64,000 nucleotides of DNA from the IMG/VR virus record IMGVR_UViG_3300030102_005172, positions 32,001 through 96,000 of that record, one strand, 5' to 3'. The stretch is from a virus. Below the pieces are notes generated by a model that was not told where the DNA came from, did not search any database, and saw only the letters and a program-made list of their open reading frames with translations. Shown here piece after piece: positions 51,353 through 62,774 of this stretch (its first letter is position 1; every line of letters begins with the position of its first letter). The position numbers were made by a program, and so were the translations under genes.

Positions 51353-53161
51353 TTAGCTTTCCCTATTTTCCATAAACGAAACTACAATATAACGAGTACC
51401 TTTTGTTGTAGCCCTTGCGCCGTGCTTATGTGTTATATTGCCAGGGTGTAATGTTGCGTAACCAATTGGACCTTTTACTAACTTCTTTTGTCTTCTAAAC
51501 CAAGTACCACCACCCTCGTACTCGTCTAAGTCTGATAATTGTATCAAACAAGTAATATCTGCTCTATCATGATGTATAGAAAGATGTCCTTGTGCATTTG
51601 GTTTATATTTAGCTAAAAAGTTTTCAGATTTCATATCATCCCAACCTTTACCTTCTAACGCCCATAAATATATGCTAAGTTGCATAACATACTCTTTCAT
51701 GACATCATTATATATTTCATCCATACCGATTGCGGTTAGTAACATATCTGTTGTTGGGTAGTTTTCATGTCTATCAACAGTCCATGAGTCTGAATATTCT
51801 GCCTCTTCTCTAATTTTTTTACAAAACTCTTCTGTAAATAGTGGGAATGTAAAACAACTATCAAAAGGTTCATCTACAATCAAATCCCATTCTTTTGTTC
51901 TAGCCGAGTATGTAATAAACTTCTTTGTCCATTCTTCTTTATTATCCCAATATGAATATAAATCATTATGTAATCTTTGTGAGTCTTGAGGTGGTCTAAA
52001 TCCCCTAGCCTCATCTGGTAATGTGTCTTGTATCATGTTTAACCAAGTTTTATATCTATTATCCCAATTTTGTTGTCTTGCAAATGTTTCTGCTTTGTTT
52101 AAATTTTCTTCTAATTTATCACCTTGTTCATTTGAAAAAGCATATGCCGCAACAAAAGTATATCTCATTAATCCTGCGTTTTTATTTTCAATGTCTTCAT
52201 CACTATCTTCTAAAAAAGGTGACTTTTGTTCTTGATTTTTTCCATGTGTAAATGAACTAATTAATGTACTTTTATTATTTAGTAATGTTTTTAAATTACC
52301 TGTATCTGTTGATAGTACTTTCACTCTACCCATCATCATTTCAAGAGCGGTTATACAATATGTTTCAGGATATTGTGATGGATAAATCCACCACTCAGAA
52401 GATTTAATTTGTCTAATCAAATCGGATGGATTTAAAGAACCTAAATAATGTACATCAAAATTTTTATCATAATTTGGAAAATCTCTTTTGATTCTATTCC
52501 ATTCGTCCCAATTGTCAGTATAAGGTGGGTTTGCAATCCATAATGTTAATTTAGGATTTATCTTTTTTAAATCATCCCATATTTGAAGTAAGTTCCATAA
52601 CCCTCTATCTGGTCCTGATGTATAAATTACTTTATCTTTAAATTTTTCTTGTGAAATATCATCAAAATCTTGTGGATTTATTGCATTACTTATGACTTTT
52701 ACTTTATCTGGATTTATATTATATTTTTTAACTAATTTACCTTTTTGCCATTCTGATACTGCAATTATATTTGTTAATTTAGAATGATTTAGATAGTCTA
52801 ATCCATTATTTGGTAAAACCTCACCATTGTAAAATGGATAAAATTCTAAATTATGTATCCAAAAGTACGATTTGTCAAATGTAATATTTTTTTCTTCAAG
52901 GTGTTTAAAATAGTGTATATAATTTGATGCAATTACTACATCAAAGTGTTGATTATTTGGAAGATTTCTATAATCAAGATATTTTACATTATTATATGTT
53001 TCTTGTTTAACTTGTCCTGTAACATAAACATCATGACCATCACGACCAAACTTATCTGCTAAATTAATAACACAATACTCAGAACCACCTGTACCATTTT
53101 CTTTCCAATCAGTATAACTAAGTGGTTTGTTTTGATATCCTACTGTAAATAAAACTTTCAT
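51353..53161 (-). CDS. Fusion: GT4 glycosyltransferase + PLOD-type lysyl hydroxylase (2OG-Fe(II)) domain
   Basis: N-terminal GGSE, YTSGPDRGL, ETYCITALE. C-terminal LHNDLY..W, FPLFTEEFC, ENYPTTD, NFLAKY.P..Q..L..HHD, YEGGGTWF, LHPGNITHKH, GTRYIVVSF. Confidence 0.85.
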   Translation of the reverse strand: MKVLFTVGYQNKPLSYTDWKENGTGGSEYCVINLADKFGRDGHDVYVTGQVKQETYNNVKYLDYRNLPNNQHFDVVIASNYIHYFKHLEEKNITFDKSYFWIHNLEFYPFYNGEVLPNNGLDYLNHSKLTNIIAVSEWQKGKLVKKYNINPDKVKVISNAINPQDFDDISQEKFKDKVIYTSGPDRGLWNLLQIWDDLKKINPKLTLWIANPPYTDNWDEWNRIKRDFPNYDKNFDVHYLGSLNPSDLIRQIKSSEWWIYPSQYPETYCITALEMMMGRVKVLSTDTGNLKTLLNNKSTLISSFTHGKNQEQKSPFLEDSDEDIENKNAGLMRYTFVAAYAFSNEQGDKLEENLNKAETFARQQNWDNRYKTWLNMIQDTLPDEARGFRPPQDSQRLHNDLYSYWDNKEEWTKKFITYSARTKEWDLIVDEPFDSCFTFPLFTEEFCKKIREEAEYSDSWTVDRHENYPTTDMLLTAIGMDEIYNDVMKEYVMQLSIYLWALEGKGWDDMKSENFLAKYKPNAQGHLSIHHDRADITCLIQLSDLDEYEGGGTWFRRQKKLVKGPIGYATLHPGNITHKHGARATTKGTRYIVVSFMENRES

Positions 53162-53162
53162 A

Positions 53163-59219: not shown

Positions 59220-62200
59220 TTAAGAAGAACCACTTGTATACATTAATACTACAAATTTTGTACTTCCACTTGTAAATGTTAATAATCCGTCTGTTGCCGA
59301 GTATGCGAATCCACCACTTCCACCTATTTCAGCGCCACCAATTAATGTTCCTAATGCATTTGCACCTTTTTGACCTTTACTTCCTTGACCACCTTGAGCA
59401 CCTGTTGCACCTTGAGCACCTTGTTCACCTGTTGGACTAGCACCTTGAGCACCTTGAGCACCTTGGTCACCTTTTGGACTGGCACCTTGAGCACCTTGAG
59501 CTCCTGTTGGACTTGCACCTTGAGCACCTTGTGGTCCTTGAGCACCTTGAGCACCTTGAGGACTTGCACCTTGAGCACCTGTTGCACCTTGAGCACCTTG
59601 TTCACCTTGTTCACCTGTTGGACTAGCACCTTGAGCACCTTGAGAACCTTTTGGTCCTTGAGCACCTTGAGCTCCTTGAGGACTTGAACCTTGAGCACCT
59701 TGAGGTCCTTGAGCACCTTGTGGTCCTTGAGCACCTTGAGCACCTTGAGGACTAGCACCTTGAGCACCTGTTACACCTTGAGCACCTTGTTCACCTTGTT
59801 CACCTGTTGGACTTGCTCCTTGAGCACCTTGAGGTCCTTGAGCACCTTGAGGTCCTTGAGCACCTTGAGGACTTGACCCTTGAGCACCTTGTGGTCCTTG
59901 AGCACCTTGATTACCTTGAGCACCTTGAGGACTAGCACCTTGAGCACCTTGTGAACCTTTAGGTCCTTGAGCACCTTGTTCACCTGTTGGACTAGCACCT
60001 TGAGCACCTTGAGGTCCTTGAGCACCTTGATTACCTTGAGCACCTTGAGGACTTGAACCTTGAGCACCTTGTTCACCTTGTTCACCTTTTGGTCCTTGAG
60101 CACCTTGAGGACTGGCACCTTGAGCACCTTGTGAACCTTTAGGTCCTTGAGCACCTTGTTCACCTGTTGGACTAGCACCTTGAGCACCTTGGACACCTTG
60201 AGCACCTTGAACACCCGTTGCACCTTGAGCACCTTGAGGACTTGAACCTTGAGCACCTTGTTCACCTTGTTCACCTTGAGCACCTTGAGCACCTTGAGGA
60301 CTGGCACCTTGAGCACCTTGAGAACCTTTTGGTCCTTGAGCACCCTGTTCACCTTGTGGACTTGCCCCTTGAGCACCTTGGAGACCTGTTGCACCTTGAG
60401 CACCCGTTGCACCTTGAGCACCTTGCGGACTTGCACCTTGAGCACCTTGTTCACCTTGTTCACCTTGAGCACCTTGAGCACCTTGTGGACTTGCTCCTTG
60501 AGCACCTTGAGAACCTTTTGGTCCTTGAGCACCTTGAGCACCTTGTGGACTTGCCCCTTGAGCACCTTGGAGACCTGTTGCACCTTGAGCACCCGTTGCA
60601 CCTTGAGCACCTTGAGGACTTGAACCTTGAGCACCTTGTTCACCTTGTTCACCTTGAGCACCTTGAGCACCTTGAGGACTGGCACCTTGAGCACCTTGAG
60701 AACCTTTTGGTCCTTGAGCACCTTGAGCTCCTTGAGGACTTGCACCTTGAGCACCTTGAGAACCTTTTGGTCCTTGAGCCCCTGTTGGACTTGCACCTTG
60801 AGCACCTTGAGAACCTTTAGGTCCTTGAGCACCTGAATCACCTTGAGCACCTTGAGCACCTTGAGCACCTGCAGCACCTTGAGCACCTGCACTACCTTGA
60901 GCACCTTGTAGACCTTGAGCACCAGTACCTTGGTCACCTTTAGGACCTTTTGCACCTTGTGCACCTGTATTACCTTTAGGTCCTTGAGCACCTTGTGGTC
61001 CTTGAGCACCCGTTGCTCCTTGAGCACCTTGAGGTCCTTGAGCACCTTGAGCACCTTGTGGACTTGAACCCGTTGCTCCTTGAGCACCTTGTGGTCCTTG
61101 AGCACCTTGATTACCTTTAGGTCCTTGAGCACCTTGAGCACCTGTTGTTCCTTGTGCACCTTGATTACCTTGAGCACCCGTTGCCCCTTGAGCACCAGCA
61201 CCTTGGTCACCTTTAGGACCTTTTGCACCTTGTGCACCTGTATTACCTTTAGGTCCTTGAGCACCTTGTGGTCCTTGCGCACCCGTTGCACCTTGAGCAC
61301 CTTGATTACCTTGTGGACCTTGAGCACCTTGTGGACTTGAACCTGCCGCTCCTTGAGCACCTTGAGGTCCTTGAGCACCTTGAGCACCTTGTGGACTTGA
61401 ACCTTGAGCACCTTGTGAACCTTTAGGTCCTTGAGCACCTTGAGCACCTTGTGGACTAGCACCTTGAGCACCTTGATTACCTTTTGGTCCTTGAGCACCT
61501 TGAGCACCTTGAGGTGATGACCCTGCAGGTCCTTGAGCACCTTGTGAACCTTTAGGTCCTTGAGCACCTTGAGGACTGGCACCTTGAGCACCTTGATTAC
61601 CTTTAGGTCCTTGAGCACCTTGAGCACCTTGTGGACTTGAACCTTGAGCACCTTGTGAACCTTTTGGTCCTTGAGCACCTTGAGCACCTGTTGTAGTTCC
61701 ACCTTGTGGACCTTGAGCACCTTGAGACCCTTTAGGTCCTTGAGCACCTTGAGGACTTGAACCTTGAGCACCTTGTGAACCTTTAGGTCCTTGAGCACCT
61801 TGAGGACTTGAACCTTGAGCACCTTGTGAACCTTTTGGACCTTGAGCACCTTGTGAACCTTTTGGACTTGAACCTTGAGCACCTTGTGAACCTTTTGGTC
61901 CTTGAGCACCTTGAGCACCTTGTGGACTTGAACCTTGAGCACCTTGTGAACCTTTTGGACCTTGAGCTCCTTGAGCACCTTGAGGACTTGCACCTTGAGC
62001 ACCTTGAGAACCTTTTGGACCTTGAGCACCTTGAGCACCTGTTGTAGTTCCACCTTGTGGGCCTTGAGCACCTTGTGCACCTTGAGAACCTTTTGGTCCT
62101 TGAGCACCTTGAGGTCCTTGAGAACCTTGTGTAGTTCCACCCGTTGCACCTTGAGCACCTTGAGAACCTTGTACACTTGCACCCGTTGCACCTTGAGCAC

Positions 62201-62774
62201 CTTGAGAACCTTTTGGTCCTGAACTACCCGATGAACCTTGAGCACCTGTTGGTCCTTTTGCACCTGTTGAACCTGGCGAACCACCGGCACCTTTTTGACC
62301 TTTTTGACCTTTTTGACCTTGTGGTCCTGTGTTATGTACTAATAACTCACCTATAAAATAATTGTGGTCAGGTTCTACCTCTATACTTATGAGTTCTATT
62401 GGTCCTTCTACATATTTTACTGAAGTGACCTTAATATCGTTGAAGAATAGTTTACCATCACACTTACAATCTTTATCTGCGCATGATGTATTACCGATTG
62501 GTGAAACCCATTCACCATCTTTGAATATTTTTATATCAACGGAAGTTTTTAATTCAGTTCCGTCTGAAAGTTTAAGTTCTAAATAGGAGTTTAGTTGTCG
62601 TGTAAATTTAGTTACAACCTTGTTGTACCTTACGACACCATTTTCAACATCATAACCTTTTATGTAGTCACCAACTTCAATATTTGACAAGTTAATTGGA
62701 ACACCTTGTCTTTTATTTACTCTTCCTTTGATGTCTACTAAGGTATCTTTATGTAATCCATGTATTAATTCCAT
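59220..62774 (-). CDS. Hint-domain + collagen-like fibre protein (GAQ/GPQ-rich)
   Basis: GLHKDTLV...IEVGD...[20 protein letters not shown] (aa 6-148), then about 990 aa of Gly-X-Y with SPQ inserts. Confidence 0.9.
59360..62327 (-). repeat. Collagen Gly-X-Y coding repeat dominated by accttgagc
   Basis: Long run of near-identical 9-nt units with periodic 6-nt inserts. Confidence 0.92.

Follow-up and report, generated by a model that had tools for sequence, protein, structure and literature searches.

A putative collagen-decorating gene cassette with a PLOD-type lysyl hydroxylase in an uncultured marine T4-like phage

Analysis of 64,000 nucleotides of viral DNA (the window, positions 32001-96000 of the 118-kb IMG/VR record IMGVR_UViG_3300030102_005172, which is estimated to be 66% complete) revealed a compact cassette in which two collagen-like fibre genes, termed colB and colA, are followed by a small 2-oxoglutarate (2OG)-Fe(II) oxygenase, a GT2 glycosyltransferase, and a GT4 glycosyltransferase fused to a PLOD-type lysyl hydroxylase (LH) domain. 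The source is an uncultured marine T4-like myovirus. Judged from its sequence, the region is quite likely a fibre-maturation module, located between the head and neck genes, by which the phage decorates its own collagen fibres. The reading is carried mainly by the family membership of the hydroxylase domain, the position of lysine within the collagen triplets, and the joint presence of the hydroxylase gene and these lysines among related phages.

The hydroxylase fusion and its lysine-rich collagens

The minus strand carries every gene of the region, with intergenic gaps of only 1-41 nt. The genes of the cassette and their domains are as follows.

59220..62774, minus strand: colB, collagen-like fibre protein of 1184 aa (Pfam Collagen, E 8.6e-85)
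62331..62774, minus strand: Hint/BIL-like head of colB, residues 1-148, ending LLVHN then T just before the first GPQG (fold search)
55097..59200, minus strand: colA, collagen-like fibre protein of 1367 aa (Pfam Collagen, E 8.5e-139)
58592..59200, minus strand: N-terminal domain of colA, residues 1-203, ending FVVHN (motif; non-significant fold matches)
58346..58591, minus strand: Cys-rich linker of colA, residues 204-285, with 6 Cys, ending DSDSST before the collagen (read from the sequence)
54453..55055, minus strand: 2OG-Fe(II) oxygenase, 200 aa (PF13640, 50.7 bits, cut-off 27; phrog_61, E 3.5e-33)
53163..54449, minus strand: GT2 glycosyltransferase, 428 aa (PF00535, 61 bits, cut-off 23.3)
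51353..53161, minus strand: GT4 and PLOD-like fusion, 602 aa (PF13439, PF00534 and PF25238 above their cut-offs)
52172..53161, minus strand: GT4 (GT-B) domain of the fusion, about residues 1-330 (PF13439, PF00534)
51353..51988, minus strand: PLOD-type LH domain of the fusion, residues 392-602 (matches to human LH3 and L230)

All of these genes had been named in the initial annotation, and Pfam and PHROGs searches recovered each of them at the coordinates given there, on the minus strand and followed by the neck genes.

The C-terminal domain of the 602-aa protein is most similar to collagen lysyl hydroxylases. Residues 392-598 align with residues 498-714 of human LH3/PLOD3 (E 6.7e-30) and with positions 17-234 of the LH domain of mimivirus L230 (E 2.7e-22); the next-best families appear only near E 0.3, and the sole solved relatives are collagen lysyl hydroxylases. 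Five residues, Y519, H530, D532, H580 and R590, are invariant among 13 homologues down to 41% identity, and their spacing equals that of Y814, H825, D827, H877 and R887 in L230 (PMC5802723). According to that study, Tyr814 and Arg887 of L230 bind 2OG, whereas His825, Asp827 and His877 ligate the iron, and these residues are needed for activity on collagen (PMC5802723). On these alignments the domain is assigned as a genuine PLOD-family lysyl hydroxylase domain, and the PLOD-like call of the initial annotation stands, with the Fe and 2OG ligands kept.

The N-terminal half of the fusion matches PF13439 (36.1 bits, cut-off 28.5) and PF00534 (35.4 bits, cut-off 26.4), and its residues E266 and E274, invariant in the 13 homologues, form an E-x7-E pattern that we take to be the motif of retaining GT4 glycosyltransferases. 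This half aligned neither to the GT-A or accessory domains of LH3 nor to the glycosyltransferase part of L230, and Pfam found no GT25 domain (PF01755) in the 602-aa protein; the NCBIfam matches to all three enzymes of the cassette lie far below their cut-offs. One search returned 260 homologues of the fusion protein, in a form of ~560-600 aa and a form of ~790-850 aa. The longer form carries an inserted GT25 domain, so that GT4, GT25 and LH are joined in one protein, and its GT25 part matches human procollagen galactosyltransferase 1 (COLGALT1) with an E of 4.6e-13. Searched for by itself in public protein sets, the LH domain gives 1961 cluster representatives at E<=1e-3, of which 86 reach E<=1e-30, and the family is not rare; the domain is almost always C-terminal, in proteins of about 200, 450, 560 and 800 aa.

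The collagen region of colA (approximately residues 286-1328) contains 330 Gly-X-Y triplets with a longest run of 174, and that of colB (approximately residues 150-1139) contains 299 triplets in 42 runs; the two proteins also have conserved C-terminal domains of ~40 aa and ~45 aa, respectively. Lysine is concentrated at the Y position. In colA, 81 of the 93 lysines are at Y and 4 at X, in the triplets GAKG (24), GQKG (13), GNKG (12), GSKG (9), GVKG (9), GHKG (6) and GPKG (2), whereas colB has 35 of 53 lysines at Y and 0 at X, with GPKG (27) prevailing. The commonest lysine contexts are GAKG-NT in colA and GPKG-SQ in colB. These counts agree with the richness in X-Lys-Gly triplets noticed in the initial annotation, but its label of 'animal-style' collagen is overstated: proline is nearly confined to X (12 in colA and 46 in colB) and hardly present at Y (4 and 1), and the associated transferases have GT4 and GT2 folds, not the GT-A fold of LH3. 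Threonine makes up 12-37% of the Y positions in the phage collagens.

One and the same two-residue insertion ('..G-A/S-S-PQ-G..') interrupts the triple-helix region of colB 27 times, and colA has two copies of a 12-residue acidic break, MDPE(G/Q)ILE(P/E)DF(D/T); such regular breaks may serve as hinges. In one close relative (L040, positions 3803-8064), colA is split into two overlapping open reading frames (ORFs) of 921 and 516 codons, and among near-identical phages its length varies from 1232 to 1421 codons. The splitting and the length variation may come from frameshifts, changes in repeat length or assembly errors.

Covariation of the hydroxylase gene with Y-position lysine

Scans with the fusion protein, its alignment, its long form, the neck protein and two GT2 proteins yielded ~250 viral loci, the neck-gene relatives being the best 80 of >500 in the viral collection. 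Within the lineage defined by common neck and sheath genes (69-92% identity of the sheath), the cassette invariably stands directly before the neck gene. Its commonest form is collagen-2OG-GT2-GT4LH; other forms are collagen-2OG-GT4LH, without GT2, collagen-2OG-GT2-(GT4-GT25-LH), and collagen-2OG-GT2, without any LH. More distant relatives (L159-L165) have nothing at all at this place, that is, no collagen and none of the three enzymes. Among the loci listed, a collagen ORF is present wherever the DNA extends upstream of the enzymes, and no lineage locus listed has the enzymes without collagen, which answers in the affirmative the question of synteny across related phages raised in the initial annotation. 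Many contigs end within the collagen repeats, and collagen lengths should be read with care. In loci L009-L039, the three enzymes are 72-85% identical to those of the window and thus less conserved than the neck and sheath proteins (84-96%).

From 169 loci with a neck gene, we kept 40 that are distinct in the neck, gp14 and gp15 genes, hold at least 40 collagen triplets and are classifiable; the fragment L167 was merged with its full-length twin L166. Lysine at Y follows the presence of the LH gene.

LH gene present, 33 loci: Lys at Y in 4.4-35.5% of triplets, median 23.4%, pooled 2247/11301
LH gene absent, 7 loci: Lys at Y in 0-2.3% of triplets, pooled 17/1521

The seven values without the LH gene are 0/60, 0/122, 1/43, 0/54, 4/403, 12/717 (L166) and 0/122, and the two groups differ with a Mann-Whitney p of 4e-5, uncorrected for relatedness. 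Lysine at X occurs in just 25 of the 11301 triplets of the LH-bearing loci. The collagens of the LH-less loci are homologous to those of the LH-bearing ones, having kept the colA C-terminal domain and the Hint-type heads. On the neck-gene tree the LH-less loci are scattered and the LH state changes 6-7 times. Counted on well-supported branches, there are three independent pairs of LH-bearing and LH-less loci, or 5-6 when every branch is counted, and each pair points the same way.

A similar association is seen outside this lineage. In other viral lineages, 21 distinct collagen sets have GT2 homologues nearby but no LH gene less than 10 kb away, and lysine occupies Y in only 8 of their 2313 triplets. 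A different, 205-kb phage lineage encodes a 450-aa GT25::LH fusion and has fibre segments of the GEKGDKGDKG type, with lysine at Y in 7 of 24 triplets. On this 205-kb contig (L191, positions 6672-21142), the GT25::LH gene lies among GxKGDKG fibre-like proteins, together with a 618-aa GT2 relative, a DUF6445 protein and several small genes; the region looks like a differently built lysine-decoration module.

Taken as comparative evidence, these data make a good, though not conclusive, case that the X-Lys-Gly triplets of phage collagens are a hydroxylase substrate. The central proposal of the initial annotation, a phage making animal-style collagen fibres with hydroxylysine, attached sugars and a removable propeptide, is thereby sustained in part: the covariation favours a PLOD-like enzyme acting on the neighbouring X-Lys-Gly triplets, the animal-style character falls away, and from these genes we infer the hydroxylysine, the sugars and the propeptide removal.

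Several observations weigh against this interpretation. Hydroxylysine, its sugars and the cleavage are not known to have been measured in any phage, and no isolate of the phage collection searched carries the cassette. The hydroxylase is dispensable for the fibre, as LH-less relatives retain the collagens, the 2OG oxygenase and GT2. The LH-less fragment L167 has lysine at Y in 4 of 94 triplets, which overlaps the lowest value among the LH-bearing loci (3/68). The tree of the 2OG and GT2 genes puts the LH-less cassettes in only two places, and module exchange may therefore explain part of their scatter on the neck-gene tree; the safe count of independent contrasts between LH and lysine is 2-6. 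With so few independent events, sign tests give p 0.25-0.5 and cannot reach significance. Moreover, the bacterial homologues of the GT4-LH fusion (39-45% identity) stand by themselves, surrounded by unrelated metabolic genes, and in five genomes no collagen gene lies within 10 kb of them. Collagen-like matches are found elsewhere in 5/5 of these genomes, but also in 4/14 control genomes. On the supporting side, two of the five hold distant collagen-like ORFs rich in lysine at Y (64/158 in one; 9/39 with 8/42 in the other), the corresponding loci being L093 of an Aliishimia metagenome-assembled genome (L103 and L108 are from the same genome) and L089/L104 of a Chromatiales symbiont, and bacteria may use the same lysine chemistry.

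Two other explanations of the cassette have to be weighed. The LH-GT4 fusion and the other two enzymes might act on non-collagen targets, such as the host envelope or lipopolysaccharide or other phage and host proteins, as auxiliary or host-takeover genes that share a variable region with the fibres. It would suit this explanation that PHROGs assigns all three enzymes to the class 'moron, auxiliary metabolic gene and host takeover', that the window has other glycosyltransferase genes far from the collagens, and that the bacterial homologues are not adjacent to collagen genes. Nevertheless, we consider it unlikely, given that lysine at Y tracks the LH gene, that the enzymes never occur without collagen among the lineage loci listed, and that among solved structures the C-terminal domain is related only to collagen lysyl hydroxylases. 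Alternatively, the link between LH and lysine-rich collagen could reflect the shared descent of one recombining module, in which lysine at Y is kept for the triple helix or for its charge and the hydroxylase is inactive or irrelevant. The confinement of the LH-less cassettes to just two groups on the 2OG and GT2 tree is in keeping with such descent, as module exchange could inflate the apparent number of events on the neck-gene tree. We regard it as very unlikely, because the catalytic residues of LH are invariant across homologues down to 41% identity, the LH-less collagens have lost their lysines despite being homologous to the LH-bearing ones, and unrelated phage collagens without LH are also without lysine. 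Decoration of the phage's own collagens by the fusion enzyme is therefore the reading we retain.

N-terminal heads, accessory enzymes and genomic setting

The N-terminal head of colB is related to self-processing domains. Pfam gave a PT-HINT match at E 6e-4 and 20.5 bits, below the cut-off of 27.7. An AlphaFold (AF2) model of the head built from six homologues has a pLDDT of 59, and a Foldseek search with it returned 48 PDB matches at E<=1e-3, every one of the matches listed being to a BIL domain or an intein. Tetrahymena BUBL BIL2 and the BIL domain of C. thermocellum are among the top matches, for which E runs from 1.4e-7 to 3e-5 and TM from 0.6 to 0.73. The head ends in HN followed by Thr in 9/9 distinct variants, and an 'EVEPDHNY' block is strictly kept, at overall identities of 51-83%. 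At the position of the intein Cys1, the nine variants have Gly (6), Ala (2) or Ser (1), and T-S-V-D stands where a block-B T-x-x-H is expected; we take both motifs to be needed for intein splicing. By these residues the colB head is not a splicing intein. The parts for N-terminal splicing are gone and the residues for Asn cyclisation are strictly kept, and the simplest reading is therefore that the head cuts itself off the fibre; on the modelled fold, it is probably a self-removing cap. One colB-type head, at locus L244, is the variant with Ser at the first intein position and could retain the N-terminal reaction.

The evidence is thinner for colA. Its head has a (V/I)(V/I)HN end in 18 of 19 distinct variants and VVRN in the remaining one, and an hhalign comparison with the colB Hint domain aligned only the last 24 columns, at a probability of 30%. 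The model of this head is poor (pLDDT 55, with residues 1-79 below 50); its best Foldseek match, at E 0.14, is not significant, and inteins or Hedgehog Hint domains fill 9 of the top 11 rows. The colA head is probably Hint-derived, to go by its ending. The following linker varies from 22 to 114 residues and from 1 to 10 Cys. The description of these proteins as Hint-collagens in the initial annotation accordingly suits colB, through BIL and intein fold matches to a modest model, and extends to colA only by the motif and by non-significant fold matches. Hint heads are also found in LH-less relatives, and this feature is therefore independent of the lysine chemistry.

It is also conceivable that the Hint heads are not removed at all, having lost all chemistry and stayed in place as folded heads that might, for instance, attach the fibre to the virion or bring its three chains together. 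We hold this to be somewhat doubtful. The colB heads lack the N-terminal nucleophile and what we take to be the block-B His, the residue after HN in colA is not a nucleophile, one colA variant ends in RN, and the fold search with the colA head gave no significant match, all in favour of inert heads. By contrast, the strict HN plus Thr and the 'EVEPDHNY' block in 9/9 colB variants, despite identities of 51-83%, are hard to explain for an inert domain. Furthermore, Asn cyclisation requires no +1 nucleophile in established intein chemistry. Self-removal of the colB head remains our preferred reading.

The small oxygenase is a prolyl-hydroxylase-like member of PF13640, in which an H-M-D motif and a later His can be read. 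Among PDB entries it is matched best by PiuC, a PKHD-type hydroxylase (E 6.9e-7), and all PKHD-type NCBIfam models score below cut-off for this protein. Whichever form the cassette takes, and whether LH is there or not, the oxygenase gene lies directly 3' of a collagen gene, and it occurs in every collagen-bearing locus of the lineage where the DNA extends far enough; of the three enzymes, this one has the tightest link to collagen. Since this oxygenase and GT2 also adjoin lysine-free collagens in other lineages, lysine is ruled out as its target. The obvious candidate is proline at X; when the presence of the enzyme was compared with proline at X in other lineages, contig ends made its absence unreadable. 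The GT2 domain spans residues 121-238 of the 428-aa protein, with chondroitin synthase as its best PDB match (E 1.1e-12). Some LH-bearing relatives lack GT2, and LH-less ones carry it; it is generic by sequence and optional in the cassette. By analogy with bacterial collagens that carry sugars, it may glycosylate Thr at Y or the product of the small oxygenase.

The remaining genes and motifs around the cassette are listed below.

62785..63621, minus strand: 278-aa protein, the next gene 5' of colB, with a weak tail-fibre N-terminal likeness (phrog_18345 tail fiber, E 2.5e-5)
50154..51317, minus strand: head-tail adaptor-like (neck) gene, 387 aa (phrog_211, E 4e-14)
48782..49621, minus strand: weak T4 gp15-like gene (24.1 bits, below the cut-off of 25)
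45984..48386, minus strand: tail sheath (Pfam, PHROGs)
45447..45935, minus strand: tail tube (Pfam, PHROGs)
55077-55086, minus strand: ATATTTATAT, promoter-like motif, 22-31 nt upstream of the start codon of the 2OG oxygenase
51335-51344, minus strand: ATATTTATAT, second copy, preceding the neck gene
48765-48774 and 30213-30222, minus strand: ATATTTATAT, further copies
48423, 43829, 33726 and 9372: near-matches to ATATTTATAT

Homologues of the 278-aa protein precede colB in relatives, and by its sequence likeness the protein probably belongs to the same fibre module. In transcription order, a 175-aa gene lies between the head-tail adaptor-like gene and the gp15-like gene. Upstream in the same record are the terminase, portal, protease, major capsid protein and PhoH genes; after the PhoH group come a 1449-aa baseplate/tail-fibre-connector-like protein and then a 570-aa tail-fibre-like protein, and T4-type replication genes fill the remainder of the window. 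The G+C content is 0.43-0.52 in the collagen genes, compared to 0.29-0.37 elsewhere. PHROGs also marked three further glycosyltransferase-like genes, at 6666-7946, 7943-9346 and 21533-22663, among the replication genes and far from the collagen cassette.

The nearest isolate by the sheath protein is Microcystis phage Mel-JY01 (55% identity), in which the neck genes come soon after PhoH, with neither collagen nor the three enzymes there. The collagens and enzymes therefore form part of an inserted fibre module, with the head genes on one side and the neck genes on the other; phage T4 carries its whisker gene at the matching place (gene order gp12-wac-13-14-15-18-19). A megablast of the enzyme-neck region against 50,697 phage records gave zero matches, and protein searches of the same collection found only distant (23-29%) 2OG or glycosyltransferase matches and no close LH homologue; the cassette is therefore carried by no isolate in it.

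The motif ATATTTATAT(A) stands 20-45 nt upstream of many start codons, including those of the 2OG oxygenase, the neck gene, a 93-aa ORF, the sheath, an ssb-like gene and others. The window holds 37 matches to ATATTTATAT at <=1 mismatch, compared to 21.5 +/- 4.9 in shuffles, and the motif is possibly a phage promoter. The enzyme genes have their own copy, and none lies directly upstream of colA or colB. The T4 late-promoter word TATAAATA is not enriched in the window (11 matches, 9.5 expected), and scans for sigma-70-like promoters and terminators found nothing above shuffles. Two metatranscriptome runs of one study contain contigs of 129-436 nt, with <=7 differences, over the sheath, tube, gp15-like, neck, GT4-LH and 2OG genes, covering 51801-52005, 52072-52234 and 52611-52762 of GT4-LH and 54641-54833 of the 2OG gene. 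As DNA can occur in RNA libraries, these contigs are no proof of transcription.

Proposed maturation pathway and comparison with known systems

We propose that the LH domain would hydroxylate lysine in the X-Lys-Gly triplets of still-unfolded collagen chains, using Fe(II), 2OG and O2, and that the fused GT4 domain would add a sugar to the resulting hydroxylysine, joined in relatives by the extra COLGALT-like GT25 domain. The P4H-like small oxygenase and GT2 would perform a second, LH-independent decoration step on another residue, most likely on X-position Pro by the former and on Thr or the new hydroxyl group by the latter. The chains would then trimerise and the N-terminal Hint domain would cut itself off at HN|T by Asn cyclisation, and the decorated fibres would be displayed on the virion as whiskers or tail fibres. 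More broadly, it is plausible, and here advanced tentatively, that tailed phages run a complete cytoplasmic 'procollagen' maturation, with a self-excising Hint propeptide, PLOD lysine hydroxylation, glycosylation by GT4 (and by a COLGALT-like GT25 in relatives) and a second hydroxylase/GT2 step, in which enzyme and substrate sites are gained and lost together.

If true, this would widen the known chemistry of phage virions, and the joint loss of hydroxylase and lysines opens the hypothesis to direct testing. Compact LH-GT fusions encoded in a bacterial setting could be used for modified recombinant collagens in bacteria, and the colB head would be a naturally occurring N-terminal tag that cleaves itself from a trimeric fibre. 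The origin of the PLOD/COLGALT machinery would be touched as well: regarded as typical of animals and giant viruses, it would then be common among marine phages and found in some bacteria, and may have passed between these and animals or giant viruses, or have arisen among phages or bacteria.

Hydroxylation and glycosylation of collagen lysine are textbook animal biochemistry. The phage LH domain has human LH3/PLOD3 as its best solved match and shares its substrate motif, X-Lys-Gly with Lys at Y, and the GT25 domain fused to LH in relatives of the phage resembles human COLGALT1. Different from the human enzymes, the window enzyme has neither GT25 nor the GT-A/accessory domain of the LH3 type, and the phage system operates without an endoplasmic reticulum and without Pro or hydroxyproline at Y.

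Prokaryotic collagens offer partial parallels. Bacillus anthracis BclA is a glycosylated collagen-like fibre with sugars on Y-position Thr and no known lysyl hydroxylase. It resembles the phage proteins as a prokaryotic collagen-like fibre, the phage collagens having 12-37% Thr at Y and an adjoining GT2. A 2010 comparative study predicted that other dioxygenase families modify bacterial collagen-like proteins (PMC2938197), and a 2022 review describes prokaryotic collagens as mostly without such modifications and, of the viruses, names only mimivirus (PMC8968730).

The heads and the position of the fibres can likewise be compared with known elements. The colB head shares its fold and its C-terminal His-Asn followed by Thr with type-A BIL domains and cleavage-only mini-inteins (PDB 2lwy, 6y75, 6riz), but it occupies the extreme N-terminus, leaving almost no N-extein, continues into a collagen fibre, lacks Cys1 (Gly/Ala in 8/9, Ser in 1/9) and has Asp in place of the presumed block-B His. 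The Peptidase_S74 endosialidase-type chaperone domains of viral fibres are also self-removing domains at one end of a trimeric fibre; the Hint head differs from them in its fold, in lying at the opposite end of the protein and in its chemistry, and Pfam found no S74 domain in the window. As for T4 fibritin (wac), it too is a trimeric fibre encoded immediately upstream of the neck genes, but it is a coiled coil, not a collagen, and has no known modifying enzymes. A 2025 study of polinton-like viruses reports, in viral fibre proteins, collagen repeats fused to self-cleaving endosialidase-type chaperone domains, with no hydroxylase (PMC12220804).

Together with the human LH3-COLGALT1 pair, the closest known system is that of mimivirus, which likewise encodes both collagens and a C-terminal PLOD-type LH joined to a sugar transferase, L230; this enzyme hydroxylates collagen in vitro (PMC5802723). 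We found no paper on a PLOD-type enzyme or hydroxylysine in a tailed phage in full-text searches of literature open without subscription, and this one giant virus is the only viral case in the literature found. The phage system differs from that of mimivirus in its host, a bacterium rather than an amoeba, and in its transferase, a GT4 (GT-B) enzyme with no match to the glycosyltransferase part of L230. Moreover, the phage enzyme genes are tightly linked to the genes of their putative substrates, the collagens carry Hint heads, and a second oxygenase and GT2 are added. What is new here is thus the predicted hydroxylation and glycosylation of collagen lysine in tailed phages, with different partner enzymes and heads of the self-cleaving type, whereas the chemistry itself is already known.

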